A DNA stretch of 64,000 nt from an uncultured Verrucomicrobiota bacterium (GTDB lineage Bacteria; Verrucomicrobiota; Verrucomicrobiia; Palsa-1439; CAZOTB01). The first letter of the stretch is position 1. Each line of letters begins with the position of its first letter. Under the pieces are notes generated by a model. That model searched no databases. It saw only the letters and a list, made by a program, of their open reading frames with translations, and had not been told where the DNA came from. The position numbers were made by a program, and so were the translations under genes. The stretch covers positions 2,845 to 66,844 of the forward strand of contig CAZOTB010000001.1 in the NCBI GenBank assembly GCA_964582645.1, given 5' to 3'. Of this stretch, positions 2,684-59,436 are shown piece by piece.

Positions 2684-2795
2684 CGGAAGGTGCAACAATG
2701 GAAGACGGGAAGAATCAGGGCACGATGCTCGCGTCCATTCAAGGTGCGAATCCGGCCTTCCACCCTTCCATGCTTCCACCCTTCCATCACCTCCC

Positions 2796-3921: not shown

Positions 3922-4896
3922 ATGACCTACACCCATCTCGGACGCAGCGGATTGAAAGTCAGCCGGCTCTGTCTCGGCACAATGAACTTCGGCCCCGTCA
4001 CCAACGAAGCCGACAGCCACGCCATCATGGACAAGGCGCTTGAAGTCGGCATCAACTTCTTCGACACCGCCAACATCTACGGCGGCAAACCGGGCGAAGG
4101 TTGGACCGAACAGATCATGGGCCGATGGTTCGCCAAGGGCGGCGGACGACGCGACAAGGTCGTGCTCGCCACCAAGGTCTATAACCGGATGGGCGAGTGG
4201 CCGAACGAATCGCGCCTGTCCGCGTTGCACATCCGCAAGGCGTGCGACGACAGCTTGCGCCGGCTGCAGACCGATCGCATTGATCTCTATCAGTTCCATC
4301 ACATAGACCGCGAGAGTCCGTGGGAGGAAATCTGGCAGGCGATGGAACAACTCGTCCAGGCCGGCAAGATCATCTACGCCGGCAGCAGCAACTTCGCAGG
4401 CTGGCACATCGCGCAGGCACAAGGCGCGGCGCAGGCCCGGCATTTCATGGGACTCGTTTCCGAGCAATGCCGCTACAACCTCACCGTGCGCCAGCCCGAG
4501 ATGGAAGTGTTGCCGGCCTGTCGTGGCTACGGTCTCGGCGTCATCCCGTGGAGTCCGCTCGCCGGTGGCCTGCTCGGTGGACGCGAAAAGACCGACGCGG
4601 GACGCCGCGTGTCGGCTTCGAAGCAAGACCCGCAGTTCTTCGAGAAGTACAAGACTCAACTCGACGCCTACGAGGCGCTCTGCCGCGAACTCGGCGAGAA
4701 ACCGGCCGACGTGGCGTTGGCGTGGCTGCTTCACAACCCCGTCGTCACTGCCCCGATCATCGGCCCGCGTACCAACGAGCAACTTAACGGCAACCTCCGC
4801 AGTCTCGAAATCAAGTTGAGCGCCGAAGTGATGAAGCGGCTCGACACCATCTGGCCCGGCCCCGGCGGCGAAGCGCCGGAGGCGTTTGCGTGGTGA
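3922..4896 (+). CDS. Aldo/keto reductase family oxidoreductase
   Basis: MTYTHLGRSGLKVSRLCLGTMNFG...IDLYQFHHID...AGSSNF is a classic AKR signature. ATG at 3922 within ORF 3874..4896. Confidence 0.85.
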   Translation: MTYTHLGRSGLKVSRLCLGTMNFGPVTNEADSHAIMDKALEVGINFFDTANIYGGKPGEGWTEQIMGRWFAKGGGRRDKVVLATKVYNRMGEWPNESRLSALHIRKACDDSLRRLQTDRIDLYQFHHIDRESPWEEIWQAMEQLVQAGKIIYAGSSNFAGWHIAQAQGAAQARHFMGLVSEQCRYNLTVRQPEMEVLPACRGYGLGVIPWSPLAGGLLGGREKTDAGRRVSASKQDPQFFEKYKTQLDAYEALCRELGEKPADVALAWLLHNPVVTAPIIGPRTNEQLNGNLRSLEIKLSAEVMKRLDTIWPGPGGEAPEAFAW

Positions 4897-4961: not shown

Positions 4962-5029
4962 CAAGCTGAAGCTTGAACTCCAAACGCAAGCTTCGTGAGG
5001 CTCACGTTCGGAGTTCAAGCTTCAGCGTG
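4962..5029. repeat. REP-like extragenic palindrome, family A
   Basis: CAAGCTGAAGCTTGAACTCCAAACG ... CGTTCGGAGTTCAAGCTTCAGCGTG are inverted arms around an 18 nt loop. Lies downstream of the AKR gene. Confidence 0.65.
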
Positions 5030-7788: not shown

Positions 7789-10581
7789 ATGATCCAGCGT
7801 TTTCTTAAGACCAGCGCGATCTCCCTCTGTTTGCTGCTCGCAGCCACTCTCATGTGTCGCGGAGCAGACAACGAGGAGGACAAGATCCTTCTCAAGGTCA
7901 CCGGCCTCTGGGGCGGAAGCGTCACGCCGCGCAAGGATGCGCGCACGCCCTCCGACAAGGCCAGCGCCGAAATTCTCGACGCCTTCCTCAAGAAGTTCCC
8001 GCAATATGGTTTCCAGCCGACGCGGACGATCCGTTTGCCCGCGGGCAGCAAGGCGCAGGAATCGGCGTTGCTGATGGCGATGGCGGGACGCACCGCGGGC
8101 GACATCATCTACGTCAACTTCCGCGTGGTGGATAACTGGGTGCGGCAGAACTTCCTCGTCCCGCTCGATTCGTTCGTGATCGAGTACGCGGAGCAGGAAT
8201 GCAAGCGGCTCGGCATTGATTATCCCAAACCACTCACGCTCGACAAGGTGGACCCGGCATGGGTCGGCATCAACCCACAGACATGGGACACCATCTACCG
8301 CCCTGACACGAAGGGCAACTGGCACGTCTGGTCGTGGCCGTACTACGAGGTGGCCATGGCGATGTATTACCGCAAGGACGTGCTGCAGGAGAAGGCACCT
8401 GCGCTCAAGGCTGCCGGGCTGGAGGTGCGGCCGCCGCGCACCTGGGAAGAAGTCATCGAATATTGCAAGGCGCTCACCGACCCGACGAAGGGCGAGTTCG
8501 GTTTCCAAAACACCACGTACGCTGGCTGGTATTTTGCAGACCTGTTGTGGCAGGGCGGCGTCGAGATCGTCGAGCGCGATACGAATCTGCAATGGCACGT
8601 CACGTGGGATTCGCCCGGCACGATTGACACGGTCCGGTTCTGGCGGGAGCTGACCAACACCGAGGTGACGAAGGACGGGAAAACGAGTTTTGTCGCGATG
8701 GACTCCGCGCGTTCCGCCACGCGCATGGGTTTCGGCGAAGGCAAGGCGGCTTTCATGTGGGCGTACTCTTCCGAGTTGAGCCTCGGCGGTTATCAGAACC
8801 TCGACCCGGAGGTGCTGGGCGCGGTGCCGTTGCCGGCCGGTCCCGTGCAGACGACGGAGGGAAAATCGCCCGAGGAATTGCTGGCGAAATACCCGCACCC
8901 GAACAAGAAGGGCTGGATTCTCTTCCCCAACGGTCGCCAGGCGCCGGCGAAGTCGCTGGTGAACTTCGGCGACGGCTGGCGCATTCGCGGCAACGAAATC
9001 AATGCGGCCATGTGGGGCATCTGCTCGCTCTGCACCGATCCGAAACGCCAGCGCGCAGCGTGGGAGTGGCTGAAATTCCAGAACAGCGACGAAGCTCGGC
9101 GCATCCGCACCACCGTGTTGGTCGAGAACGGCAGCGCCATCAGTGTGCGTCCCGACCTGCTCAAGCGGTACGGGTTCGAGGAATACTACGAGCAGGTGCC
9201 GAAAGATTGGCGCGAGGCGAACGAGGACGTGTTCCGCACCGGCCGTCCCGAGCCGAACGGGAAAAACTGCCAGTACGTTTATGATTTCATCGAGATGCCG
9301 GCGCGCGATGCGGCGGAGTTCGCTTCCCTGCCGAATCGTCGCGCCCGGATGAACAATCCGATCGTCCGTGAATCCTGGCGCAAAGCGATGGGTGGCAACG
9401 ACGACGCACTGGTGGCCAAGATGCGTTCCGAGGGCGAGGTGAAGGAGTCCGACATCGCGTTGCTCAAGCAGGACACCGCGGAGATTCAGTCCAACGTCTT
9501 GCAGAGTCTCGAACGCGCCAAGCGCCGCATGCTCGATCAACTCCCCGAGGAGGAACTCTCGAAGTATCGCAAGTACGCCGTGCTCATCGTGATCGTGGTG
9601 ACGTGCATGTGCATCTTCGGTTTGTGGGCGATCCTCCGCTTTTACGGGAAGGATGCGAAAGGCCGAATGATCGAGCAGCCGCAGCCCTCCCGGGTGCATC
9701 TGACGGCGTGGTCGTTCATGGGGCTGGCGGTGTTGAGCGTGTTGGTCTGGAACTACTACCCGCTCGCGCGCGGCGCGGTCATTGCCTTCCAGAATTACCA
9801 GATCATGGGCGGCAGCGAGTTCGTCGGTCTCGACAACTTCGTCAAAGTTTTCATCGAACCGCTCTTCACCAAGGCGGTGATCAACACGCTCCTCTGGGTC
9901 GCGCTGCAACTGGGGCTGACGTTCTTCCCGCCGATCTTTCTCGCGATCATCCTGGACGAAATCCCCAAGGGGAAACTGTTCTTCCGCATCATCTTTTATC
10001 TGCCGGCGGTCATGAGCAGCCTGGTCGTTGCGTATCTCTGGCTGTGGATGTTCTCGCCGAACCCGGACGGCCTGCTGAACTCGCTTCTGATCAAAATGCA
10101 CCTGGTCAAACCGAGCGAACCGATGGCGTGGCTGACCCGGTCACCGATTCTGGCGATGATCTGTGTGATCATTCCCGGCATCTGGGCGGGCATCGGGCCG
10201 GGCTGCATCATCTACCTCGCGGCGCTCAAAAGCATTCCTGAGGATATCTACGAGGCGGCCGACCTGGACGGCGCAAGCACGTGGCGGAAAGTGTTCGGGA
10301 TCACGCTCCCGTACCTCAAACCGCTGGTGATCATCAATTTCGTCGGTGCGTTCATCGGCGCGTTCCGCAGTTGGGAGGGCATTTTCGTGATGACGGGCGG
10401 CGGTCCGAACGACGGCACCCATGTCATCGGCATGGAAGTCTGGTACAACGCGTTCGCCTATTTGCGTTTCGGCTACGCGACCGCCGTCGCCTGGATCATC
10501 GGCGCCGCGCTGGTGGGATTCACCGTGTATCAGTTGCGAATTTTGCGCAATGTCCGGTTCACAACAGCGAAGAGGGATTGA
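7789..10581 (+). CDS. ABC importer component: signal peptide and extracellular solute-binding (family-1-like) domain fused to a MalF-type inner-membrane permease
   Basis: ORF track, 930 aa. N-terminal signal MIQRFLKTSAISLCLLLAATLMC, ~550 aa SBP-like region, then a 6-TM permease with EAA motif IYEAADLDGASTWRKVFGITLPYLKP. Paralog of 15778..18186. Confidence 0.8.
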   Translation: MIQRFLKTSAISLCLLLAATLMCRGADNEEDKILLKVTGLWGGSVTPRKDARTPSDKASAEILDAFLKKFPQYGFQPTRTIRLPAGSKAQESALLMAMAGRTAGDIIYVNFRVVDNWVRQNFLVPLDSFVIEYAEQECKRLGIDYPKPLTLDKVDPAWVGINPQTWDTIYRPDTKGNWHVWSWPYYEVAMAMYYRKDVLQEKAPALKAAGLEVRPPRTWEEVIEYCKALTDPTKGEFGFQNTTYAGWYFADLLWQGGVEIVERDTNLQWHVTWDSPGTIDTVRFWRELTNTEVTKDGKTSFVAMDSARSATRMGFGEGKAAFMWAYSSELSLGGYQNLDPEVLGAVPLPAGPVQTTEGKSPEELLAKYPHPNKKGWILFPNGRQAPAKSLVNFGDGWRIRGNEINAAMWGICSLCTDPKRQRAAWEWLKFQNSDEARRIRTTVLVENGSAISVRPDLLKRYGFEEYYEQVPKDWREANEDVFRTGRPEPNGKNCQYVYDFIEMPARDAAEFASLPNRRARMNNPIVRESWRKAMGGNDDALVAKMRSEGEVKESDIALLKQDTAEIQSNVLQSLERAKRRMLDQLPEEELSKYRKYAVLIVIVVTCMCIFGLWAILRFYGKDAKGRMIEQPQPSRVHLTAWSFMGLAVLSVLVWNYYPLARGAVIAFQNYQIMGGSEFVGLDNFVKVFIEPLFTKAVINTLLWVALQLGLTFFPPIFLAIILDEIPKGKLFFRIIFYLPAVMSSLVVAYLWLWMFSPNPDGLLNSLLIKMHLVKPSEPMAWLTRSPILAMICVIIPGIWAGIGPGCIIYLAALKSIPEDIYEAADLDGASTWRKVFGITLPYLKPLVIINFVGAFIGAFRSWEGIFVMTGGGPNDGTHVIGMEVWYNAFAYLRFGYATAVAWIIGAALVGFTVYQLRILRNVRFTTAKRD

Positions 10582-10587
10582 GAATGT

Positions 10588-10690
10588 TGTTACTCGTTAT
10601 TGGTTATTGGTTATTGGTTATTGGGAAAGCAAAAGGCCAATCACGAAGAACCAATAACAAATAACGGATAACTAATAACCCATAACCAAC
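10588..10690. repeat. Palindromic element, family B (GTTATTGG repeats), 'empty' copy between the two permease genes
   Basis: Left arm GTTACTCGTTATTGGTTATTGGTTATTGGG, right arm CCAATAACAAATAACGGATAACTAATAACCCATAACCAAC (imperfect inverted repeat); loop ~25 nt. Confidence 0.6.
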
Positions 10691-10691
10691 A

Positions 10692-12614
10692 GTGCCCGTA
10701 ATCAGTAAAGTCGGACGTTCATCGCCGGGAGTGAGGCTCACCCTCACTCTCATGTACCTGCTTTTGGTGGCCGGGTCGGTCACCATGATCGGGCCGTTCC
10801 TGATGATGCTCTCGTCCTCCATCAGCAGCGAGGCGGACATCTCCGACTATCGTATCGTCCCGAGGTTTCTGACCGAGGAGGATGCGTTGTTCGCCCGGTT
10901 CCTCAACGACAAGTACAATGGCAACCTTTGGTCCATCAAAGACCTCTTCGGCTACGACCTTTCCCGCGTGGACGTGCGCACGCGCACCGTTTCCGAAATG
11001 GTAAATGAACTCCGGCTCCGCGATCAGGTGGCCGACCCCGGCCGGCGAGCACTCGTGAAGGAGTACGGTGAGTTTCTGGCCACCGGCATCCCGGACGATC
11101 TGTACATGACCGGCTTCATCCTGCGCGGCGGATTGATCGGCCCCGTCAACAAACTCTATCAGGAGTGGCTGAAGGCGAAGTTCGGTACCGTCGAGGCGAT
11201 GAACAAGGCGTACGACGACCAATACACCTATTGGGCGGAGGTGGGGGTGCCGCCTGAGGCAGTCTATGCGCGGGATTGGGCGCCCGTGTACCACAAGCGG
11301 TACCGCGACTTCCTCGATTTCAAGAAGACCCTGCCGGCCTGGCAGCGTGTGCCCTACGAAGGGGAACGCAAATGGGTCGAGCATCTGAAACTTGTCAGCG
11401 ACGCCAACATCGAGAAGCTCAATGCGTTGCTCGGCACGAAGTACAAGGATTTCTACGACGTACCAATGCCCCTTGCCGCACCGTCCGACCCCAAGGTCCT
11501 CAAACTCTGGGAAGACCTGGTGCGCCGCAAGTGGCCGCTGCGGTTGATCGTGCCGAACGAGGCGGGTGTGCGCGAGTACCGGACGTTCCTCGAAGCGCGC
11601 CGAAAAACCATCGCCAAGGTCAACGAAGCCTACGGCACGAGTTACACGAGCTTCGACGAGGTGCCGTGGCCGCGCGACGACATGTTCGAGGGAATGCGCC
11701 AGAGCGACTTCCTCGATTTCCTCAAGAGCGAAACCGCGGGCGCGCCCCGTCTGACGATCCAGAACGTGACGTTGCGCACGACCGGCGGCGAGTTCCACAA
11801 ATGGCTGCAGGCCCGCCACGGCGGTTCGCTCGACGGGATCAACAAGGCGCTCGGGACGAAATTCGCCAGCCTCGATGAGATCGGCCTTCCGCAGGCAGCG
11901 TGGGAGTGGACTCTCGTGATGTCGGACACCGGCCACTGGCGCTGGGAGTTCGTGAAGAGCAACTACTTCGAGGTGGTCTCGTTCATCCTCACCAAGGGGC
12001 GCGCCCTGAGCAACACCGTCATCTTTATTCTTCTTTCCATCCTCATCCATCTCACGATCAACCCACTCTGCGCATATGCATTGTCGCGGTTCAACATTTC
12101 CTACTCGTACAAGGTGCTGCTCTTCCTGCTCGCGACGATGGCGTTCCCTGGAGAAGTGACCATGATCCCGAACTTCCTCCTCCTCCGCGATTTCGGGATG
12201 CTCAACACCTTCGCCGCGCTGATCCTCCCCGGCATGGCCAACGGATTCAGCATCTTCATCCTCAAAGGATTCTTCGACACGCTCCCGAAGGAGCTGTACG
12301 AAGCCGCGCAACTCGACGGCGCCGGCGAGTTGCGGATGTTCTACCAGATCACCGTGCCGCTGTGTCAGCCCGTGTTCGCGTACACCGCGTTGATCACGTT
12401 CACCGGCGCGTACGGCGCGTTCCTGTTCGCGTTGACCGTGTGCCAGGACCCGAACATGTGGACGATCATGGTCTGGTTGTACGACCTGAACGCCACGTCC
12501 CCCGAGCACATCAAAGTCGCCGCCCTGGTGATTGCGATGATCCCGACGCTGATTGTGTTCGTGACATGTCAGCGAGTGATCATGCGGGGCATCGTGCTGC
12601 CTCAGATGAATTAG
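10692..12614 (+). CDS. ABC importer MalG-type permease with ~400 aa periplasmic loop between TM1 and TM2 carrying four internal repeats
   Basis: ORF track, 640 aa. TM1 TLTLMYLLLVAGSVTMIGPFLMML; loop repeats such as VNEAYGTSYTSFDEVPWP and INKALGTKFASLDEIGLP; C-terminal permease EAA motif LYEAAQLDGAGELRMFYQITVPL. Paralog of 18719..20590. Confidence 0.8.
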   Translation: MPVISKVGRSSPGVRLTLTLMYLLLVAGSVTMIGPFLMMLSSSISSEADISDYRIVPRFLTEEDALFARFLNDKYNGNLWSIKDLFGYDLSRVDVRTRTVSEMVNELRLRDQVADPGRRALVKEYGEFLATGIPDDLYMTGFILRGGLIGPVNKLYQEWLKAKFGTVEAMNKAYDDQYTYWAEVGVPPEAVYARDWAPVYHKRYRDFLDFKKTLPAWQRVPYEGERKWVEHLKLVSDANIEKLNALLGTKYKDFYDVPMPLAAPSDPKVLKLWEDLVRRKWPLRLIVPNEAGVREYRTFLEARRKTIAKVNEAYGTSYTSFDEVPWPRDDMFEGMRQSDFLDFLKSETAGAPRLTIQNVTLRTTGGEFHKWLQARHGGSLDGINKALGTKFASLDEIGLPQAAWEWTLVMSDTGHWRWEFVKSNYFEVVSFILTKGRALSNTVIFILLSILIHLTINPLCAYALSRFNISYSYKVLLFLLATMAFPGEVTMIPNFLLLRDFGMLNTFAALILPGMANGFSIFILKGFFDTLPKELYEAAQLDGAGELRMFYQITVPLCQPVFAYTALITFTGAYGAFLFALTVCQDPNMWTIMVWLYDLNATSPEHIKVAALVIAMIPTLIVFVTCQRVIMRGIVLPQMN

Positions 12615-12728: not shown

Positions 12729-12798
12729 AGGCTGAAGGCTGTACTCCAAACGCGAGCTGTTCGAAGGCTCTGGTTCGGAGTACAAGCTTCAGCTTGGT
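12729..12798. repeat. REP-like extragenic palindrome, family A
   Basis: GCTGAAGGCTGTACTCCAAACGC ... GGTTCGGAGTACAAGCTTCAGCTTGG are inverted arms; downstream of the permease gene. Confidence 0.55.
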
Positions 12799-14418: not shown

Positions 14419-15657
14419 CTATTTCGATCCCGGCGGGCCCTCCAGCAGGAAATCTTCCCAAGGCCGGCTCCGGACTCCGGCGGCCTGCGCCACCGCCTCC
14501 CGCGCACGGTCGCAAACGACCAATGGTTGAAACCGTGGATTCCGCCGGCAGAATTCCAGGAGCGCGGAAAGGTCGCGAGCCGAGTACGCGCCGGTCTTGA
14601 CTTCGATGGCCCAATTCCCCCAGGAGCCTTCGGTGACAAAGTCCAGTTCGAGCGGTTCCTCGCGCCAATAGTGGACCTGCTGGCTGCAGTTCCACGCCAG
14701 CGCGCCACAGGCGTTTTCGACCCATCGTCCCCAGCGCTCCGCATCACGATCGGGAGACGGCAGGACATTCGTGGTCGCTCCCAGGAACGCGTTGTTCAGC
14801 GCGATCAACTTGGGCGGAGCGGCGCGTTGCCGGAGCATCTTGCCGGAGTACTTGCGCAGTGCGACCGCCAGACAAGCTTCTTCCAGCAACTCCAAATAAT
14901 GTGCCACCGTCTCCAGTGCGCCGCTGGAACCGAGTTGGCCGCAGATTTTCTGAAGCGAAATGATTTCCGCAGGGTGTCCCGTGACAATGGCAAATACTTG
15001 CCGAAGCAGCGCCGGCTTCCGAATCGCTTCCACCGCCAGCATGTCCCGGCCGATCGCCGGCTCGATGATGCTGTCTCGCACGTAGCTGCGCCAGCGGATG
15101 AGGTCGTCCAGCAGCGGCACCGCCCCGGGATAGCTTCCCTGCCCGACGGTCCGGCGCGCGGCAACCAGCGGATCGAGTCGAAAACAACGCACCACTTCCG
15201 AAGCCGGCCAATGCAGCAACCGCAATCTCTCAAATCGGCCTGCCATGGTCTCACGGCTGCCGTGACCAAGCCCAAGCGCTGAGGACCCGGTGGCGACCAC
15301 ATGAAGCGGCAGCCGCGCGCGTTTCAGTTGGTCCATCTTGCTCTTCAGCAAGCGCTGCCAGTTGTCGAGGTACTGGATTTCATCGAGCAACAACATTGCG
15401 GAACCGCCTGCCGCCAACTGCTGAGCCCGATGCCACAGGTTTTCCCACCATCCGGCCAATGCGGCCTCGGGAGTGTCTGCCGCTGCGTATAGGGCGCGTT
15501 CCCCTTTCTCGCTGGCCAGTGCCAGCAGCAACGTGGTTTTTCCAACCTGACGCGGCCCGGTCAGTAGTTGCGCGCGGTGGGACGGTTCGGCGTTCAGTCT
15601 CTTCCGCAGTTCGGCGAGCACGGTGTCATAGGCGTGCGGCCCGATGAATTCGTCCAT
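14419..15657 (-). CDS. AAA+ superfamily ATPase with C-terminal DUF4143-like domain
   Basis: Walker A GPRQVGKTTLL, Walker B LLLDEIQ, C-terminal WAIEVKTGAY; architecture as in the AAA_14 + DUF4143 predicted-ATPase family. Confidence 0.8.
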   Translation of the reverse strand: MDEFIGPHAYDTVLAELRKRLNAEPSHRAQLLTGPRQVGKTTLLLALASEKGERALYAAADTPEAALAGWWENLWHRAQQLAAGGSAMLLLDEIQYLDNWQRLLKSKMDQLKRARLPLHVVATGSSALGLGHGSRETMAGRFERLRLLHWPASEVVRCFRLDPLVAARRTVGQGSYPGAVPLLDDLIRWRSYVRDSIIEPAIGRDMLAVEAIRKPALLRQVFAIVTGHPAEIISLQKICGQLGSSGALETVAHYLELLEEACLAVALRKYSGKMLRQRAAPPKLIALNNAFLGATTNVLPSPDRDAERWGRWVENACGALAWNCSQQVHYWREEPLELDFVTEGSWGNWAIEVKTGAYSARDLSALLEFCRRNPRFQPLVVCDRAREAVAQAAGVRSRPWEDFLLEGPPGSK

Positions 15658-15777
15658 GGTCGAATCATTATTCGATTACGTCCGAAAATCAATCTCGGTC
15701 GCCGAAATCGTTTCCATCAGGCTGAAAATGGCTCGACAGGCAGTGTCGGGTTCCTAACAGTGTTGCGAGACAGTCTG

Positions 15778-18186
15778 ATGATTTTGCACAAACGATTCGC
15801 CGCCTTTTCTATCCTCGCCGTGAGCTTGTGGTTGCAGTCAAGCCCGTCTGGCGCCGCCCCCGCTCCGACCGACAAAGTGATAGTCCGGATCAGCGGCATG
15901 CCGAGCAAACGGGCCAACTCGCCGCGCGAGATCGCCAGCTACCGGGTCGTCGAACGATTCCAGCAATTGTATCCCGACATCGAAATCCGGGGCACGACCG
16001 CGCTGGAAATCCAGAACATCGGCAGCGAAGCGGCGACGCTCATGTCCATCGCGGGCGGAACGGCGCCGGACATTCTCGTCGTCAACTTCCGCCAGTCCGA
16101 CACCTACCTCAGCGAAGGTTTCCTGGCGCCGCTGGATGAATACATCATGGCGATGGACCCGGCCGAACGCGAAGATCGCATTCCTGCCCCGGTTCGTCCG
16201 GTCGTGTACCGCGAAGGTCCCGACGGACAGAAACATTACTGGATGATCCCGCAATACATCGGCGCCAAGGTGCTGATGTATCGCCGCGATCTCCTCGCAG
16301 CGGCGGGACTCGATCCCGATCGTCCGCCGAAGGACTGGGACGAACTGCGGGAGTACGCGCGGAAGGTGGCCGATCCGTCGCGCGGCATTTATGGGCTCGG
16401 TTTCTACTCGGGCATTCACGCGTCGTGGTCCATGTACACGTACCTTGTCAGCACGGGCGCGCAGGCGATGAAGCAACTGCCCGATGGCCAATGGCGGGCG
16501 GCATTCGATTCCGACGAGGCGGTCACGGCGTATGAGTTCGTGGATGATCTGCTGAAAGAGCAGGTCGAGAAAGCCGGCAAGTCCGGCCCCATGGCGTACC
16601 GCGGGGCGGACTTCGGTCAGAAATGGACGGACGGGAAAGTGGCGATGCAGTTCTCGACGCTGCAGAGCAAGGAACTCGGCGATATCAATCCGCAGTTGAT
16701 GGGCATCGCGCCAATCCCGAAGGGGCCGACGGGCATCGCGAGCTCCGAAGTGAATTGTCCGATGTACGCGATCTTTGCCGGGCAGAAGGACAAACGCGTT
16801 CGCGACGCGGCGTGGAAGTACATCTGGTTCACCGACAGCGTGGAAGCACGGAGGATTTTCGTGCAGACAATGGTCGAGCAGGGCGCCGCGCGCACGTTGC
16901 GTCCGAAGCTCTTGCGGCAATTTGGATTCTCGGAATTGGCCGACCTGGCGATTCCCGGCCTCGAGGAAGCTTACGAAACCGCTCTCGCCCAGGGCACGCC
17001 CGAGCCGTACGGCAAAAACTGCCAGTTCGTCTATGCGTACATGACCAAGCCCATGGACGCGGCCTACTACTTCGATTTCAAGGGCATGACCCGGCAACAG
17101 AAGCGCGCGAAGATCAAGGAATTCCTCCGCAAGGCCGTGGACGAAGCCAACGAACAGATGATCGGTATCGTGCCCGAACCTGTCCGCAAGAAGCGCAATG
17201 GCATCGCGTGGGTCGTCGCCGTCGTCGTCCTCCTGAGTTTCGTCCTGCTGTTGCGACAGGTCTTTCGCTGGATGAGCCAGGGATTCGCGCCCTCGACGGA
17301 GCCGGCTTCGGGCTACAAGAATCGCATGGCGGTCGCGCTGATCGCGCCCGCGCTGCTTCTGATCCTGCTCTGGCAGTACTATCCGCTCGTGCGCGGCTCG
17401 CTGATGGCGTTTCAGGATTACAGCATCATGGGCGGGTCACCGTGGATCGGCATTGATAACTTCGCGGACGTCCTGTTCGACAAGAATTTCTGGCTCGCGT
17501 TGAAGAACGCGGTGTATTTCTGCGCGTTGTGGATGCTGATGGGTTTCCTGCCGCCGATGGCGTTGGCGATCATCCTGCAGGAAATCCCGCTCGGCAAACT
17601 GCTGTTCCGAATTCTCTTCTACCTCCCACATCTCGTGTCCGGCATCGTCATCTATTTCATGTGGCGCGGGTTTTACGACGTCTCGCCCGACGGCATCCTG
17701 AACCGCATCCTGGCGGTATTCAACATCCCCGCGCAGAAGTGGCTCGACGACCCGAACATCGCGATGATCTGCGTCGTGTTTCCGATTGCCTGGTCGCACC
17801 TCGGCGCCGGGTGCATCATCTACCTCGCCGCGCTCAAGGGCATCCCGGATGAACTGTACGAGGCAGCCGACATTGACGGCGCATCGTTCTTTCAAAAGTT
17901 GCGCTTCATCGTCTTTTCGTATCTCAAACCGCTGATCGTGATCAACGCGGTCGGCGCCACGATCTTCGGCTTCAAATCCGCCGACGCAGTTCTTGCGATG
18001 ACGGGCGGAGGTCCAAACGGCGCGACACAGGTCATCGGGTACGAAATCTGGCAGCGTTCGTTCATGTTCCTGCATTTCAGTCAGGCCACCGCGATGGCGT
18101 GGATTCTGGGAGTGTTGTTGCTCTCGTTCACGGCGTATCAACTCCGCATTTTGAACAAGGTGGAGTTTCGCACAACCGGCAAGTGA
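15778..18186 (+). CDS. ABC importer component: solute-binding domain fused to a MalF-type permease (paralog of 7789..10581)
   Basis: Within ORF 15568..18186. Start at ATG 15778 (MILHKRFAAFSILAVSLWLQSSPSGAAPA, signal peptide), because the longer ORF overlaps the convergent ATPase gene. EAA motif LYEAADIDGASFFQKLRFIVFSYLKP. Confidence 0.8.
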   Translation: MILHKRFAAFSILAVSLWLQSSPSGAAPAPTDKVIVRISGMPSKRANSPREIASYRVVERFQQLYPDIEIRGTTALEIQNIGSEAATLMSIAGGTAPDILVVNFRQSDTYLSEGFLAPLDEYIMAMDPAEREDRIPAPVRPVVYREGPDGQKHYWMIPQYIGAKVLMYRRDLLAAAGLDPDRPPKDWDELREYARKVADPSRGIYGLGFYSGIHASWSMYTYLVSTGAQAMKQLPDGQWRAAFDSDEAVTAYEFVDDLLKEQVEKAGKSGPMAYRGADFGQKWTDGKVAMQFSTLQSKELGDINPQLMGIAPIPKGPTGIASSEVNCPMYAIFAGQKDKRVRDAAWKYIWFTDSVEARRIFVQTMVEQGAARTLRPKLLRQFGFSELADLAIPGLEEAYETALAQGTPEPYGKNCQFVYAYMTKPMDAAYYFDFKGMTRQQKRAKIKEFLRKAVDEANEQMIGIVPEPVRKKRNGIAWVVAVVVLLSFVLLLRQVFRWMSQGFAPSTEPASGYKNRMAVALIAPALLLILLWQYYPLVRGSLMAFQDYSIMGGSPWIGIDNFADVLFDKNFWLALKNAVYFCALWMLMGFLPPMALAIILQEIPLGKLLFRILFYLPHLVSGIVIYFMWRGFYDVSPDGILNRILAVFNIPAQKWLDDPNIAMICVVFPIAWSHLGAGCIIYLAALKGIPDELYEAADIDGASFFQKLRFIVFSYLKPLIVINAVGATIFGFKSADAVLAMTGGGPNGATQVIGYEIWQRSFMFLHFSQATAMAWILGVLLLSFTAYQLRILNKVEFRTTGK

Positions 18187-18187
18187 G

Positions 18188-18714
18188 GGTTATTGGTTAT
18201 CAGTTATTCGTTACTGACTGACCGGAGGCAAAGATATGAGCGAGAAGATCATGACGCTCGAGGATTTGAAATGCTGGCAGGCTTGTCGGGCCTTGCGATT
18301 GTTTGTGACCCGCGAAGTCGTACCTCTCTTGCCGAGGGCGGAACGATATCGCTTGATTGATCAGCTCGTCCGTGCGGCGCGTTCGACGACCTCCAATATC
18401 GCGGAAGGCTACGGACGATTTCATTATCTCGACAACGCCAAGTTCTGTAGCAACTCGCGCGGCTCCTGCTGGGAAGTGCTCGACCATTTGATCGCAGGTC
18501 GCGACGAGGGATTGATTTCCGAGGAAATGCTCGCCAAGGGCCGCCAGTTGGTCGGCGACGCGGTCAAGTTACTCAACGGCTACATGAACTACCTCAAAGC
18601 CGCCGGCGATCGCCCTCAAGGCATCGCCCGCGAAGCCCAATCCGAGTATTACGTAACTCACGTGACGAACGCCCAGCCGGAGAACGAGTAACCAATAACC
18701 AATAACCAATAACG
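18188..18714. mobile_element. Candidate MITE-like family-B palindromic element carrying a passenger gene
   Basis: Left arm GGTTATTGGTTATCAGTTATTCGTTACTGA (18188-18216) and right arm CCAATAACCAATAACCAATAACG (18690-18714) are inverted repeats of the same family as 10588..10690 and 59349..59436. They bracket the four-helix-bundle gene exactly at the position where the paralogous locus has only an empty palindrome. Confidence 0.45.
18236..18691 (+). CDS. Four-helix-bundle protein (TIGR02436 / '23S rRNA intervening-sequence protein' family)
   Basis: 151 aa; the NIAEGYGR motif, size and helical character are typical of this family. Confidence 0.75.
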   Translation: MSEKIMTLEDLKCWQACRALRLFVTREVVPLLPRAERYRLIDQLVRAARSTTSNIAEGYGRFHYLDNAKFCSNSRGSCWEVLDHLIAGRDEGLISEEMLAKGRQLVGDAVKLLNGYMNYLKAAGDRPQGIAREAQSEYYVTHVTNAQPENE

Positions 18715-18718
18715 ATCC

Positions 18719-20590
18719 GTGCCGATTCTAAGCCCCATCCAAAAACGTTCCCCCGCCGGTCGGGTGTTGGTCGCGGCGATGTACGTCATCTGCATCGTCG
18801 GGTCGGCGTGGATGGTTTATCCGTTCCTGCTCATGGTCAGCGGCTCGGTCAAGAGCGAGGTGGATATGCGCAAGTTCGACATCTTCCCGCGCTACGTCCA
18901 CGACGACGTCATCTTGTTCCGCAAATTCGAGGAGCAACGCTACGGCGGACAGCTCGATGCGTTCACGGCTGCCTGCCGGTATTCGGACACCAACGCGCGG
19001 CCGCTGTCGTCCTTCGAGTTCCTGCCAACCCCAACTGATCCGCCGACGGCCGTGCTCGCGGATTGGAATGAATTCACCCGGGACTGCCGGTCATGGCCGC
19101 GCCACTACCTGCAGCTCGGCCACAATTTCGGCTACAAGACGTTCCCCGAGGTCACGCTTGAATACCAGCACCGGCTCTGGGAAGCGTTCCCCGATGTTCC
19201 GAAGATTCAACTCGCCACCGCGCCACAACGTCTCCTGATCCAGGAAAAATGGCAGACGCGCGCCTACCAATCCGTGCAAGGTCCGTATGCGCCAATCTAC
19301 GACAAACTGCGCAGCGACCTGCCCGACCGCTATTTCATTCCCACCGCGATCGAGGGCACGTTCGTCACCACGCTCCTGCAATCCCGGTACGGCACGGGCA
19401 CCAACGGAGTCGCCAAGCTGAACAAGAAATGGGGAACGAACTTCGCCAGCGTGTTCGACGCCTCGCTCAACGTCACGCCGCCGACACAAGCCGGGCAACG
19501 CGACGACTGGTGGGAGTTCGTGCGCACCAGTCTCTCGGCGCGGTTCATCCGGCTGGATGACGCGTCGCTGCTGAAGTTGCGGGAATTTCTCCGGGAGAAA
19601 TACAAGGACATCGCCAAGCTGAACACGATCTACGGCGCTGCGTATCCCGATTGGAGCGCGATCCACTTCGAGCCGACCCGCGCGCCGATCGCCGCCTACG
19701 CCGACGTCGAGGGATTCGTGCAGACGCTCGCATCGCCGGAAGGCCTTTCGCTCGACGGTCCCGAGTTTCGCTGGCGTGAGTTTGTGAAGACGAAGTACGG
19801 CGATCTCGCGGCGTTCAATCAAGCGCATGGGACAGACTACACGTCATTCGATCACGTCAAGATGCCCCTGCTCGCCGCCGATTGGGCGATCATGAAAGCC
19901 AACCGCTGGCCAATCGTCCGCGAGTACCTGACCCGGAACTACCGGGTGGTGTGGGATTACCTGTCGGTGCAGGGCCGCGCCGTGCAGAACACGATCATCT
20001 TTGTGGTGCTCAACATTGTGACCGCGCTGATCGTCAACCCGCTCGCTGCGTACGCGTTGTCCCGCTTCCAACCGCGGTGGAGTTACAAAGCGTTGTTTCT
20101 CCTGATGGCAACGATGGCGTTCCCGGGCGAAGTGACGCAGATCCCCGCGTTCCTCCTGCTGCGCGACCTTGGTTTCCTCAACACGTTCGCCGCGCTGGTC
20201 ATCCCCGCCGCCGCCAACGGGTACTCGATCTTCCTGCTCAAAGGTTTCTTCGACAGCCTGCCGAAGGACCTCTACGAATCCGCCACGCTCGACGGGGCCG
20301 GGGAGTTTCGCGTGTTCTTCACCATCACCATGCCGCTCTCCGCGCCGATCCTTGCCGTGATCGCGCTCGGGGCGTTCACCAGCGCGTATGGCGCGTTCAT
20401 GTTCGCACTGCTGGTCTGCCAGAAGCAGACAATGTGGACGATCATGGTCTATATCTACCAGTTGCAGCAGCTCTACAACGTTCCGATCGTCTTCGCCTCG
20501 CTTGTGATCGCCGCCATCCCGACGCTGATCGTCTTTACGCTGTGCCAGAACGTAATCATGCGCGGGATTGTGGTGCCGGTGGAGAAATAG
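18719..20590 (+). CDS. ABC importer MalG-type permease with large repeat-containing periplasmic loop (paralog of 10692..12614)
   Basis: ORF track, 623 aa. TM1 AAMYVICIVGSAWMVYPFLLMV; loop repeats LNTIYGAAYPDW and FNQAHGTDYTSFDHVKMP; EAA motif LYESATLDGAGEFRVFFTITMPL. Confidence 0.8.
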   Translation: MPILSPIQKRSPAGRVLVAAMYVICIVGSAWMVYPFLLMVSGSVKSEVDMRKFDIFPRYVHDDVILFRKFEEQRYGGQLDAFTAACRYSDTNARPLSSFEFLPTPTDPPTAVLADWNEFTRDCRSWPRHYLQLGHNFGYKTFPEVTLEYQHRLWEAFPDVPKIQLATAPQRLLIQEKWQTRAYQSVQGPYAPIYDKLRSDLPDRYFIPTAIEGTFVTTLLQSRYGTGTNGVAKLNKKWGTNFASVFDASLNVTPPTQAGQRDDWWEFVRTSLSARFIRLDDASLLKLREFLREKYKDIAKLNTIYGAAYPDWSAIHFEPTRAPIAAYADVEGFVQTLASPEGLSLDGPEFRWREFVKTKYGDLAAFNQAHGTDYTSFDHVKMPLLAADWAIMKANRWPIVREYLTRNYRVVWDYLSVQGRAVQNTIIFVVLNIVTALIVNPLAAYALSRFQPRWSYKALFLLMATMAFPGEVTQIPAFLLLRDLGFLNTFAALVIPAAANGYSIFLLKGFFDSLPKDLYESATLDGAGEFRVFFTITMPLSAPILAVIALGAFTSAYGAFMFALLVCQKQTMWTIMVYIYQLQQLYNVPIVFASLVIAAIPTLIVFTLCQNVIMRGIVVPVEK

Positions 20591-21829: not shown

Positions 21830-21916
21830 CAAGTTTGTAGTCGAGCGCTTCAGCGCGGTCTTGATGACTCGCATACCAATGTGCAGACCGCGCTGAAGCG
21901 CTCTACTACAAACTGT
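21830..21916. repeat. Perfect 29 bp inverted repeat hairpin between adaptor and permease genes
   Basis: AAGTTTGTAGTCGAGCGCTTCAGCGCGGTC ... GACCGCGCTGAAGCGCTCTACTACAAACT with a 25 nt loop; it shares the GCTTCAGC core with family-A palindromes. Confidence 0.55.
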
Positions 21917-23863: not shown

Positions 23864-23934
23864 CAAGCTAAAGCGTGAACTACCAACGCTTCGCCAAGTG
23901 GGGCGCCAGCGTTCGTAGTTCAAGCTTTAGCTTG
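23864..23934. repeat. REP-like extragenic palindrome, family A, between convergent genes
   Basis: CAAGCTAAAGCGTGAACTACCAACGC ... GCGTTCGTAGTTCAAGCTTTAGCTTG; overlaps the 3' end of the thioesterase gene. Confidence 0.6.
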
Positions 23935-24345
23935 CCGTTCCAGCGCTACGCGCAATGTTTCCGGCAAACCCTGTGGCTTCTCCTGCAAGTCCGTGCATGC
24001 GTGAATCGTCCTGGCGGTCGCGATCAGTTTTCCACCCGCCGCGCGCACGACGCGATAGTCAAACGTGAGCTTCACTTTCCCAATTTCGACTACCACAACC
24101 TCGATTTGCACCTCGTCGTCGTAGCGCGCAGCGCCCTTGTAGTCCACGTGGCAGGCGATCACCGGGAGCATGACGCCCTGCTCGATGAGCGATTGAAACG
24201 TCACGCCGATGTGGCGAAAGAATTCGTTGCGCGCCCGTTCAAGCCAGTCCACGTACCGCGCGTAATAGACATGGTTGCCGACTGTGCAGTCGGAATAGGG
24301 GACGCGATAGGTGATGGAGAATGGGGAATTGGATGCGGGGTTCAT
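23920..24345 (-). CDS. Acyl-CoA thioesterase, YbgC/4HBT hotdog family
   Basis: 141 aa; FSITYRVPYSDCTVGNHVYYARYVDWLERARNEF matches the 4HBT hotdog fold. Confidence 0.75.
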   Translation of the reverse strand: MNPASNSPFSITYRVPYSDCTVGNHVYYARYVDWLERARNEFFRHIGVTFQSLIEQGVMLPVIACHVDYKGAARYDDEVQIEVVVVEIGKVKLTFDYRVVRAAGGKLIATARTIHACTDLQEKPQGLPETLRVALERQAKA

Positions 24346-24369
24346 GGTTCAGCGTTCCGGGTTCAAGGT

Positions 24370-25293
24370 TCAGGGCTCGATGACTACGGGCGTTCCGATT
24401 TCGAGCAACTTCGCCAACGCCTCGACGTTCCAGTTGGCGAGCCGGAAACAACCGTGGCTCTCGGTCTTGCCAATGTCCTCGGGTTTGGGCGTGCCGTGGA
24501 TGCCGTAGCCGGTACGGTCGAGGCCGATCCAGTACACGCCGACCGGATTGTTCGGGCCGGGCGGAAGGATGAGTTTGCTGGTGATGGTCTTCGATTCAGG
24601 TGATTCGGCAAACACGGCGGGGTCCCACGTGAAGTTCGGGTTCGGCGCGAAGGTTTTCACCTTGAGTTCGCCCACGGGACGCCGCTCCTTGTCTTTGCCG
24701 ATGGAGCAGGGGAAAAATCCGATGATCCGGTCTCGATCGCCATACGCGATGATGACCTTGCGACCGAGCTTGATGCGCACCACGTTCGCCTTCTCGGCGG
24801 GGCGGGAGACGAGCACGTTGGGCACATTCAACGTCTGCCCCGCTTTCGCGCGCGCGAAGTCCACCTCGGAATTCAACGCCTGGAGGAACTGCTCCGCGCA
24901 ATGAAACCGTTCCGCGATCCGTTCGAGCAACGTCTCGTGGGAGAGCGACGTCTGTTCCGACTTGCCCTTCCACGTCAGTGGCACGGGAGCGAGATCCGTC
25001 AGGTCGTCCTCCGTGACCGTGTACGTGGTGAACCAGTCCGTGTTCGTGCCGAGCAAGGCCCGCTCCGTTTCCGGGCCCATCGTGCCATCCACCCGCAGGC
25101 TGTGCGTCTCCTGCCATGCCATGATTGCCTGCTTGGTCCGGCTGCCGAACTTTCCGTCCACGCAGCCGGGCGAGAACCCTTGCCGGTCGAGCGCGATCTG
25201 CCACTCGGCGAGCGGCGACGCGACCTGTGCGTCCAGCGGAATGAGCACAGAGCATGAAAGGCAGAGGTTCGCGATCCAGAGCGCCGGTCGCAT
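24370..25293 (-). CDS. L,D-transpeptidase (YkuD domain) with N-terminal peptidoglycan-binding domain
   Basis: Signal peptide; PG-binding-like QGFSPGCVDGKFGSRTKQAIMAWQ; catalytic motif HGCFRLANW. Confidence 0.8.
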   Translation of the reverse strand: MRPALWIANLCLSCSVLIPLDAQVASPLAEWQIALDRQGFSPGCVDGKFGSRTKQAIMAWQETHSLRVDGTMGPETERALLGTNTDWFTTYTVTEDDLTDLAPVPLTWKGKSEQTSLSHETLLERIAERFHCAEQFLQALNSEVDFARAKAGQTLNVPNVLVSRPAEKANVVRIKLGRKVIIAYGDRDRIIGFFPCSIGKDKERRPVGELKVKTFAPNPNFTWDPAVFAESPESKTITSKLILPPGPNNPVGVYWIGLDRTGYGIHGTPKPEDIGKTESHGCFRLANWNVEALAKLLEIGTPVVIEP

Positions 25294-28784: not shown

Positions 28785-29521
28785 CGCAGCCCCAGCACAT
28801 CCTGCATGTCGTACAACCCGGGCTTCTGACCAACAATCCATTTGGCGGCACGAAGTGCGCCTTTGGCAAACGTGTCGCGGCTGCTGGCTTTGTGGGTTAA
28901 CTCCACCCGCTCACCGATGCCGGCATAGATGACCGTATGATCCCCGATGACGTCTCCGCCGCGAATGGCGTGGATGCCGATCTCGCTCGAAGTGCGCTCG
29001 CCGACGATTCCCTCGCGCCCGTGCCGGGCGAGTTTCTTCAGCTCTTCCTTCTTGACCTCGGCGAGAATCTCCGCGAGGCGCGCCGCGGTGCCGCTCGGAG
29101 CATCCTTCTTGAGTCGGTGATGCATCTCGACCACTTCCTGGTCGTAACCGTCGCCCAACACCTCTGCCGCTTTGCGGGTGAGCGCAAAGAGGAGGTTGAC
29201 GCCGACGCTGAAGTTGGCGGCCCAGACGATGGGAATGTGTGATTTGTGGTTTTTGATTTTGAATTTCTCGTCGTCGGAGTGGCCCGTCGTGCCGATAACG
29301 ATGGCTTTACGGTTCTTGGCTGCGGCCTCGACAATCGCCAGCGTGGCGGAATGAAAGCTGAAATCAATCACCGCGTCCGCGTTGCCGATGCAGGCATTGA
29401 TGTCGTCGCCGAGATCCACCTGACCAACGACCTTCAGCTCAGGGTCTTTCGATGCCAGCCCGATGATGGTCTGGCCCATCCGGCCTTTCGAGCCGGTGAC
29501 GATGATGCGTGTGGGATTCAT
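28781..29521 (-). CDS. dapB: 4-hydroxy-tetrahydrodipicolinate reductase
   Basis: 246 aa; MNPTRIIVTGSKGRMGQ...IGTTGHSDDE...HHRLKKDAPSGTA is canonical DapB. Confidence 0.9.
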   Translation of the reverse strand: MNPTRIIVTGSKGRMGQTIIGLASKDPELKVVGQVDLGDDINACIGNADAVIDFSFHSATLAIVEAAAKNRKAIVIGTTGHSDDEKFKIKNHKSHIPIVWAANFSVGVNLLFALTRKAAEVLGDGYDQEVVEMHHRLKKDAPSGTAARLAEILAEVKKEELKKLARHGREGIVGERTSSEIGIHAIRGGDVIGDHTVIYAGIGERVELTHKASSRDTFAKGALRAAKWIVGQKPGLYDMQDVLGLR

Positions 29522-29982
29522 GTTTTTCGCCTTGCGAGGCGACGAGAACAGCGAAGCACTTTTTGCCGCATGGGTAAAGTCGCAATATCCTTCTCACGTC
29601 CCGAAGCTTTCTTGCTGGCAATCACTCGATCCAGCGGAAGCAGTCGCACAGGCTGCCCTTCGATACGGCAGAGCGTGCATCGCTTGTATTCCGCCTCGAA
29701 GGATCGGAGGCCATCGGGCCTGAAGATTGCGTTCACCTGGATTCCGTTGGGCAACTCATACATCGTGCGGGCCAAAATCTTCCCTCCGAGTCGATGTACG
29801 ATGGTCAGCAGTCGCACGTACTGCCGTTCGGGGAGTCGTACCCAGAAATCATAGTCCCACGTCGTGGCCGTCGCGCCGTGGCGTACGGCTGCCATCATCC
29901 CGATCAGGCTGCCATCTATCCCTTCTTGACGGAGGGCCTTGATGGACTCACCGAGCGGGCGGCTGCGAGGCTGATTCGGCAT
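29518..29982 (-). CDS. Hypothetical protein, possible minimal nucleotidyltransferase-fold protein
   Basis: IDGSLIGMMAAVRHGATATTWDYDFWV resembles the hG[GS]...D.D nucleotidyltransferase motif. Lies between dapA and dapB. Confidence 0.4.
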   Translation of the reverse strand: MPNQPRSRPLGESIKALRQEGIDGSLIGMMAAVRHGATATTWDYDFWVRLPERQYVRLLTIVHRLGGKILARTMYELPNGIQVNAIFRPDGLRSFEAEYKRCTLCRIEGQPVRLLPLDRVIASKKASGREKDIATLPMRQKVLRCSRRLARRKT

Positions 29983-30154
29983 CGTTCCTCCGGCGTCTTT
30001 GAGAAACTAAGTGCAAACCCCCAGCGTTCGTGGTCGTCCAAACCGCGAACTGTTTTGAGTTTGCGATAGATTCGCCTGACTTTTGCCAAGTTTGTCCCGG
30101 TGCGCCAAGCTGAGCGTCGGATGTTGGATGTTGAATGCGGGACGTTGGACGCTT

Positions 30155-59348: not shown

Positions 59349-59436
59349 CTGGTTATTCGTTGTTGGTTATTGGTTGTTCGCAAACGACACCACCGGCCCG
59401 ACGCCCATTCACGAGTAACCAATAACCGAGAACCAA
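59349..59436. repeat. Palindromic element, family B (GTTATTGG), empty copy
   Basis: GGTTATTCGTTGTTGGTTATTGGTTGTTCG ... GAGTAACCAATAACCGAGAACCAAC are inverted arms; located between the htrA 3' end and the gldA start. Confidence 0.55.

Follow-up and report, generated by a model that had tools for sequence, protein, structure and literature searches.

The stretch of DNA analysed here (the window: 64,000 nt of contig CAZOTB010000001.1, from an uncultured Verrucomicrobiota bacterium) contains inverted arrays of the heptamer GTTATTG at three intergenic sites. The second of these, at 18188-18714, is a cassette of 527 nt lying between two permease genes of an ATP-binding cassette (ABC) transporter operon, and its arms enclose a gene for a 151-aa four-helix-bundle protein of the PF05635/TIGR02436 family. 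The other two, at 10585-10690 and 59349-59436, are short hairpins that enclose no gene (Table 1). All arms of the three sites have a period of 7 nt according to Tandem Repeats Finder, and the three copies have repeat units in common but differ in their loops. A first-pass annotation, made from the letters alone, had placed three elements with inverted arms at these positions, and there they are: when up to 3 mismatches are allowed, the 16-mer GGTTATTGGTTATTGG matches the window 19 times, always inside one of the three sites, against 0.07 matches in shuffled sequence. The low complexity of the arms is all that speaks for chance or an assembly artefact; against it stand the number of matches, an identical 18188 element on five independent contigs from four further samples, and an equal layout in finished genomes of cultured organisms. 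We therefore regard the probability of such an origin as practically nil. The annotation had taken a specific sequence, GTTATTGG, for the common feature, which turned out instead to be a hairpin of 7-nt tandem repeats whose unit differs from copy to copy. Its figure of about 25 nt between the arms of the first site is close to the ~26 unpaired nt in the loop of the RNA fold, but repeat extension leaves a gap of only 12 nt.

Table 1. Features of the three heptamer sites, of the host genes around the filled cassette, and of a further tandem-repeat hairpin in the window.
Feature	Coordinates	Strand	Remarks
Heptamer hairpin without a gene (site 1), in ABC module 1 at the position paralogous to site 2	10585..10690	+	arms 10589-10624 / 10637-10689; by repeat extension 10589-10624 / 10637-10672, 36 nt, 83% complementary, spacing 12 nt
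Upstream host gene, fusion of solute-binding protein (SBP) and permease, ABC module 2	15568..18186	+	Pfam SBP_bac_1 + BPD_transp_1
5' arm of filled cassette (site 2), four heptamers GGTTATT GGTTATC AGTTATT CGTTACT	18188..18215	+	pairs with 18687-18713 in minimum-free-energy RNA fold; arms 18189-18215 / 18687-18713, 27 nt, 89% complementary, spacing 471 nt
Shine-Dalgarno-like GGAGG	18224..18228	+	in loop, 7 nt 5' of the ATG of the enclosed open reading frame (ORF)
Four-helix-bundle gene, 151 aa (PF05635 / TIGR02436)	18236..18691	+	only ORF in the 471-nt interval
3' arm of filled cassette, (CCAATAA)n array	18683..18714	+	TAA in all three frames; ends 4 nt 5' of the GTG that starts the following host gene
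Downstream host gene, second permease of ABC module 2	18719..20590	+	Pfam BPD_transp_1; orthologues compared
Gene-less heptamer hairpin (site 3)	59349..59436	-	between HtrA-type protease stop (59439) and GldA-like ABC ATPase start (about 59335); arms 59356-59380 / 59412-59436, 25 nt, 80% complementary, spacing 31 nt
Intergenic tandem-repeat hairpin, unit GGAAGnn / CCTTCCAC	2684..2795	+	between two co-directional ORFs; RNA fold z -2.3

The first two sites are paralogous, each having an SBP-permease fusion gene on one side and the gene for a second permease on the other, as the annotation had recognised. It was equally right that the arms at 18188 lie ~470 bp apart around exactly one gene. The stop codon of the upstream host gene (TGA, 18184-18186) precedes the 5' arm by 1-2 nt, and the TAA stop of the enclosed ORF (18689-18691) falls within the 3' arm. 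When the region 18180-18722 is folded as RNA, the minimum-free-energy structure retains the long-range stem between the arms. A scan of 17900-19000 gave no promoter-like site, and no terminator-like site within the element; an intrinsic terminator, which requires a GC-rich stem followed by a T run, was rejected as a candidate, the stems being AT-rich and without a T tract. No Rfam family, rRNA included, was found anywhere in the window at gathering thresholds. The gene-less hairpin of module 1 occupies the whole gap between the stop codon of one gene (10579-10581) and the GTG start of the next (10692), with a fold of -35.2 kcal/mol (z -5.5), while that at 59349-59436 folds with z -1.7 on the minus strand, which is the strand of its flanking genes, and z -2.7 on the plus strand. 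The nearest named homologues of the host genes belong to Verrucomicrobia or Verrucomicrobiae. Both ABC modules have an odd architecture: in each, the first permease is a fusion with the solute-binding protein (7789-10581 and 15568-18186, 872-930 aa), and the second permease (10692-12614 and 18719-20590, 623-640 aa) carries a large N-terminal region weakly similar to Glyco_hydro_42.

The 151-aa protein matches the PF05635 profile with an E value of 6e-23 (81.5 bits, cut-off 33.8) and TIGR02436 with 4e-22 (78.4 bits, cut-off 24). An AlphaFold2 model predicts four helices (predicted local distance difference test score, pLDDT, 86) and disorder after about residue 125, and its best Foldseek matches are Xcc0516 (2GSC; TM 0.94, root mean square deviation 1.0), BT_0352 (2RLD) and then the Avd protein of diversity-generating retroelements (DGRs). 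The protein thus belongs to the family by profile and, on the model, would form an up-and-down bundle like that of Xcc0516. To our knowledge, no function has been found for this large and widespread family of small proteins. In the window, tblastn detects no further copy of the gene, and among phage records we found no homologue of the protein. Its closest homologues (60-84% identity) come from several phyla. Across the loci compared below, the disordered C-terminal tail of the protein often extends into the downstream array (…ITDNQ*). One homologue, 66% identical to the window protein, is encoded at 1925-2383 of locus L010, on a contig binned as Bathyarchaeia, reflecting either cross-domain transfer or a binning error.

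A scan for homologues, with one genome per species, returned 80 loci (designated here by L numbers), mostly from Verrucomicrobiota and Kiritimatiellales, together with Desulfobacterales, one Chloroflexi metagenome-assembled genome (MAG) and one Bathyarchaeia MAG. When their flanks were read, tandem GTTAnnn was present just 5' of the gene, and complementary nnnTAAC at or after its stop codon, almost everywhere, and the layout recurs in at least six bacterial phyla. For 84 distinct homologous genes, the median inverted-repeat score of a gene's own flanks is 31.5, compared with 14 for random 450-bp intervals of the same loci and 19 when one flank is swapped for that of another gene; 77% of the genes lie above the 99th percentile of the random-interval control. 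A strict period-7 detector passes only 25-32% over all flanks, since the unit is variable in its last three bases, and a detector of the GTTA core is the better measure. Over 726 kb there are 245 period-7 GTTA/TAAC arrays, compared with 2 in the shuffled sequence, and the spacing from GTTA to TAAC is bimodal, with about 30 pairs having loops below 100 nt and 58 pairs spaced by 350-600 nt. A co-oriented PF05635 ORF lies in 57 of these 58 wider pairs. The link between the palindrome and the protein family that the annotation had drawn from a single filled copy is therefore real and very general. Short hairpins in the reverse order (TAAC first, GTTA second) were never seen in the scanned loci. 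Of 24 short hairpins with tandem arms in related loci, 22 have a period of 7. Some copies are built of divergent and still complementary units, such as CGTTCAAA, GTAGCAA, GATATTGG and TTGATTn. The arrangement extends to cultured organisms: plasmid pNPUN02 of Nostoc punctiforme carries an annotated four-helix-bundle gene between (AGTCAGG)n and (CCTGACT)n, and in the finished genome of Riemerella anatipestifer such a gene lies between (GGTTYAA)n and (AACCTTR)n.

The genes surrounding these cassettes are co-directional and belong to ordinary operons: the ABC permeases of the window, Wzm/Wzt (L006), subunits B and D of the V-ATPase, and two junctions of the nuo operon. Four-helix-bundle genes have also been observed between cmr3 and cmr2 (PMC3936711). 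The position of the arms relative to the host codons is the same in empty (n=32) and filled (n=58) pairs, the first GTTA lying at a median of 1-2 nt past the host stop and the last TAAC ending about 9 nt short of the host start. In every filled copy, the ORF terminates within the 3' arm, and the ribosome-binding site of the ORF comes shortly after the 5' arm. The gene is thus almost always delivered inside a heptamer-repeat hairpin, in ordinary operons as in rRNA intervening sequences (IVSs).

It is the ORF-bearing IVSs of 23S rRNA, overlooked by the annotation, that are the nearest known relatives of the cassette. The 23S rRNA IVS of Coxiella burnetii measures 428-444 nt, the inverted repeats at its ends make up a 28-bp stem, and the loop contains an S23p (PF05635) ORF; ahead of the ATG stand three tandem heptamers, GACAGAT, in a copy number that varies between strains, and cleavage by RNase III at the start of the first repeat has been shown experimentally (PMC4990558). 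The window cassette compares closely with the IVSs of Coxiella and Leptospira: a PF05635 ORF in the loop, arms of 27 nt as against a 28-bp stem, an overall size of 527 nt as against 428-444 nt, tandem heptamers in the 5' arm just ahead of the ORF, ORF-less relatives, and a sporadic distribution with signs of horizontal transfer (PMC4990558). Every anatomical feature of the IVS is matched except the location in rRNA, since the cassette lies between ABC permease genes and not in helix 9, 25 or 45 of the 23S molecule. An IVS in the strict sense interrupts a helix of the 23S (or 16S) rRNA gene, and RNase III removes it from the primary transcript without re-ligation. A second difference concerns the ORF, which in the window is strongly conserved and preceded by a good Shine-Dalgarno sequence, whereas that of Coxiella is seemingly decaying and untranslated.

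We therefore favour, as probable on balance, the interpretation of 18188-18714 as an IVS-type cassette that is co-transcribed within a protein-coding operon and whose arms pair in the transcript. As no promoter or terminator signal of its own was detected, the cassette would be transcribed as part of the ABC-transporter operon. In that transcript, the arms could form a stem of about 27 bp with the 471-nt insert looped out, and pairing would juxtapose the upstream host stop, 1-2 nt before the stem, and the downstream host start, 4-9 nt after it. Since the stem brings stop and start together, translational coupling of the host genes could persist across the cassette. By analogy with the homologous rRNA element of Coxiella, the stem would be a plausible substrate of RNase III; for pairing and coupling too, we infer events in the RNA from the experiments on Coxiella and from the position of the arms. 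The ORF has its own ribosome-binding site and ends inside the 3' arm, and the short-loop copies at 10585-10690 and 59349-59436 would represent the ORF-less form of the same hairpin, comparable with IVSs that lack an ORF. Consistent with pairing, co-variation of the arms among orthologues is significant at both nuo sites (p = 0.01 and p = 0.04).

Several observations weigh against this interpretation. Co-variation of the arms is absent at the V-ATPase site. Across 71 stems, G.U mismatches are not in excess over A.C (72 G.U against 102 A.C), so that the sequences bear no mark of selection acting on the sense RNA; complementarity of the arms could be maintained at the DNA level. Inverted flanks are weak or lacking in about a quarter of the homologues, and in a few, such as L008 and L057, the arms are in reversed order. 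Further, an IVS-type model explains neither the period of 7 nor the route by which the cassette reaches new sites. At the two reversed loci (L008 3920-4530, from Desulfovermiculus, and L057 2750-3310, from the Chloroflexi MAG) the PF05635 gene has a TAAC-type array 5' and a GTTA-type array 3', and a further TAAC array comes next, so that a gene-less hairpin lies directly 3' of the gene.

The side-by-side empty and filled sites that the annotation had singled out do occur at homologous positions, and bare sites occur as well. At the nuoI/nuoJ junction of Verrucomicrobiae, one genome is bare, its stop and start codons overlapping (TAATG), eleven genomes have a gene-less hairpin, and seven have a PF05635 cassette with varied arm units and varied protein lineages (40-64% identity to the window protein). 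In two Prosthecobacter MAGs, this junction is filled with arms of the GATATTGG type (L074) or empty with GTTAnnn arms (L078). Orthologues of the module 1 site are bare, with a spacer of 2-3 nt, in three cases, and carry hairpins of unrelated units in two. All five orthologues of the module 2 site (L212 and L219 counted once), which is filled in the window, hold a gene-less heptamer hairpin; the units are GGATGAG, AAATCCG and AAATTAG, plus one short mixed hairpin, and the gene is present in none. Because every one of these orthologues has a hairpin, the module 2 spacer is evidently a habitual home for such structures. Filled and empty hairpins at one orthologous site have unrelated arms (L074 against L078, and 18188 in the window against L217-L221), and so the arms of the filled copy appear to have come along with the gene. 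This weakens the idea, put forward in the annotation, of the hairpin as an insertion target for the gene. At two nuo loci (L043 7570-8330 and L073 7255-8025), gene-less hairpins are found at consecutive junctions, with nuoJ between the two, and a filled cassette occupies the junction upstream of this pair.

The main rival reading of these states is that of a DNA-level mobile element, with the heptamer arrays as terminal repeats, the PF05635 protein as the factor required for movement, directly or through recruitment of a host enzyme, and the gene-less hairpins as internally deleted, non-autonomous derivatives resembling miniature inverted-repeat transposable elements (MITEs). Besides the bare, empty and filled states at nuoI/nuoJ and at the window's own two sites, this reading would account for the occurrence, at one site in different genomes, of different PF05635 lineages with different arms, for arms that travel with the gene, and for proteins that are 60-75% identical in distant phyla. 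The lack of a G.U bias is consistent with complementarity at the DNA level. A role in mobility was suggested for the IVS ORF by Ralph and McClelland, as cited in PMC4990558. The loops of the empty hairpins provide a further indication: their 5' part resembles the 5' untranslated region of filled copies to an extent reached in 0 of 300 shuffles, after trimming of 4 nt on each side, as partial repeat units beside the arms inflate similarity. The resemblance is weak on the 3' side with the same trimming, and that the empty loops are remnants of deleted cassettes is suggestive only. An 11-mer, CACGAAGAACC, common to the loop at 10588 and the 3' end of the ORF in L017, was noticed post hoc.

Direct traces of movement were not detected. 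Comparison of occupied with bare orthologous sites (L064 against L078 and others; L210, L213 and L214 against the window) gave no target-site duplication, although the high divergence could hide short ones. An all-against-all blastn of the 84 cassettes with 400-nt flanks revealed no recent transposition: long matches are confined to orthologous loci inherited vertically, and non-orthologous cassettes are similar only in the core of the ORF, at no more than 78% identity, so that no recent movement is seen. Further, the arm sequences vary between copies, unlike the ends recognised by transposases, the protein is a small helical bundle without a known nuclease or recombinase motif, and the three window copies combine common units with different loops. 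Taken together, we consider a DNA-level mobile element rather unlikely. The same searches leave little of the MITE-like character proposed in the annotation. With MITEs, repetitive extragenic palindromic (REP) sequences, bacterial interspersed mosaic elements (BIMEs) and REPINs, the hairpins have in common that they are short intergenic palindromes, some in sugar-transport operons, and that they come in long and short forms; they differ from them in having variable tandem 7-nt repeats as arms instead of a conserved end, and in the absence of target duplications, near-identical dispersed copies and a transposase or RAYT gene. We thus rejected membership among MITEs or other non-autonomous transposons, there being no near-identical copies in the 64-kb window or among the 84 cassettes and no known transposase fold in the protein. 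Two hairpins in a coding region bear on the same question. The gene for a DegT/DnrJ-type aminotransferase in a Candidatus Didemnitutus MAG (L079) contains two heptamer hairpins (3585-3735 and 4110-4180) which are in frame and free of stop codons and would extend the protein by about 47 and 33 residues. They look inserted rather than locally grown, in line with mobility.

A further possibility, which corresponds to the insertion-target idea of the annotation, is that the hairpins are residents, that is, regulatory structures of the host that form in place and turn over there by repeat slippage, and that the PF05635 gene is a later passenger in their loop. The model for such structures are the short tandemly repeated repetitive (STRR) sequences, whose 7-bp-repeat hairpins between hupS and hupL of filamentous cyanobacteria have been proposed to act in transcript stability or translational coupling (PMC2670836). 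The two gene-less copies of the window are likewise 7-bp tandem-repeat hairpins in intergenic spacers of operons. STRRs were described in cyanobacteria and without a cargo gene, whereas the window belongs to a verrucomicrobium and one of its hairpins holds a PF05635 gene; as the host gene homologues are verrucomicrobial, we rejected membership in STRRs as first defined, for heterocystous cyanobacteria. The four-helix-bundle gene of Nostoc punctiforme is itself flanked by such arrays, a link we have not found described. In favour of residence, a heptamer hairpin with a differing unit is present in all five orthologues of the filled window site, gene-less hairpins are known in many unit families, and among the periodic repeats of prokaryotic intergenic DNA, tandem heptamers, to which no function has been assigned, are reported as the most abundant (PMC6344855). 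Presence of the repeat is by itself no predictor of the gene. In an unbiased sample of exact (GGTTATT)3GG from metagenomes, 97 arrays away from contig edges comprise 4 filled hairpins, 7 empty hairpins and 86 solo arrays, which have neither a gene nor a partner arm; the solo arrays often lie just 5' of a start codon and beside other heptamer arrays. Hairpins and cassettes thus make up only part of a broader phenomenon of heptamer repeats. On the other hand, PF05635 genes come mainly with GTTAnnn/nnnTAAC arms in six or more phyla. Gene-less hairpins at the same orthologous sites are built of unrelated units, and the close relatives L074 and L078, one filled and one empty, differ in their arms. 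A later passenger would also fit poorly with an ORF that always ends in the 3' arm and has its ribosome-binding site close behind the 5' arm. We give this possibility little credence.

Intergenic direct repeats of the heptamer TAACTGA have been reported in Beggiatoaceae, cyanobacteria and Bacteroidetes, a few nt 5' of start codons (MacGregor 2015, PMC4679880). TAACTGA is the reverse complement of TCAGTTA, a variant of GTTAnnn, and these arrays are placed like the 3' arms in the window. The arrays of that study differ in being direct, with a single inverted case reported, and no four-helix-bundle gene is mentioned. Our search of the literature, which covered the searchable part and not subscription-only papers, found no account of PF05635 genes outside rRNA with inverted heptamer flanks. 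What is new here is that PF05635 cassettes of the rRNA-IVS type, together with their gene-less form, occur in protein-coding operons and are built on widespread heptamer repeats.

In a more daring proposal, a pentameric PF05635 toroid would read the arrays in their 7-nt register, either as RNA or as single-stranded DNA, and would promote the spread or maintenance of its own cassette. The 151-aa protein has its fold and wider family in common with Avd (Foldseek 4DWL, 8UB7; PMC10053308), although the two are no more than 4-8% identical in sequence. The pentamer of Avd accompanies the RNA and the reverse transcriptase in the DGR particle, and the action of the toroid would resemble that of Avd with its reverse transcriptase. 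A DGR would have a reverse transcriptase and a pair of template and variable repeats next to it; among the genes called or scanned around the ORF, which is surrounded by ABC transporter and efflux genes, no reverse transcriptase was found, and no search aimed at template and variable repeats was made. We consider such a reader function improbable. If true, however, PF05635 genes and heptamer hairpins would constitute a widespread, undescribed class of mobile elements, and their gene-less derivatives would account for part of the excess of intergenic tandem heptamers in prokaryotes.

The window and the related loci tie together two unexplained and very common features of prokaryotes, the PF05635 family and intergenic tandem heptamers. 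Given cassettes in ordinary operons, and gene-less or bare sites at the same positions, the rRNA IVS appears to be a single, special instance of a far broader type of cassette. Both features become experimentally approachable, since Nostoc punctiforme and Riemerella, for example, are in culture.

The window and the scanned loci contain further repeats. The hairpin at 2684-2795 (Table 1) is of the same structure class and has a unit of another family; units of this type also fill the module 1 spacer of L211 (9860-10000). A second family of intergenic hairpins, with the core CAAGCTGAAGCTTGAACTCCAAACGC, is found at 908-988, 4962-5029, 12731-12793 and 23864-23934; these are REP-like and not tandem, and the first copy, taken as 900-995, folds with -47.8 kcal/mol (z -5.3). 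The strong palindrome at 21832-21914 has a sequence unlike that of the CAAGCTGAAGCTTGAACTCCAAACGC family. A solo (TGAACCn)n array on the minus strand (24338-24375), between the genes for a YkuD L,D-transpeptidase and a 4HBT thioesterase, contains the start codon of the thioesterase gene and has neither a partner arm nor a hairpin (fold z -0.3). Between dapA and dapB, an ORF of 154 aa without a Pfam match (29518-29982, minus strand), with a short (AACATCC)n array ahead of it (30119-30149), could be one more small passenger within an operon. Finally, hairpins of a different unit family, (GAAACCT)n/(AGGTTTC)n, are dense in a Lacunisphaera MAG (L080 579-6284), where successive intergenic spacers in a stretch of 6 kb hold at least four of them.

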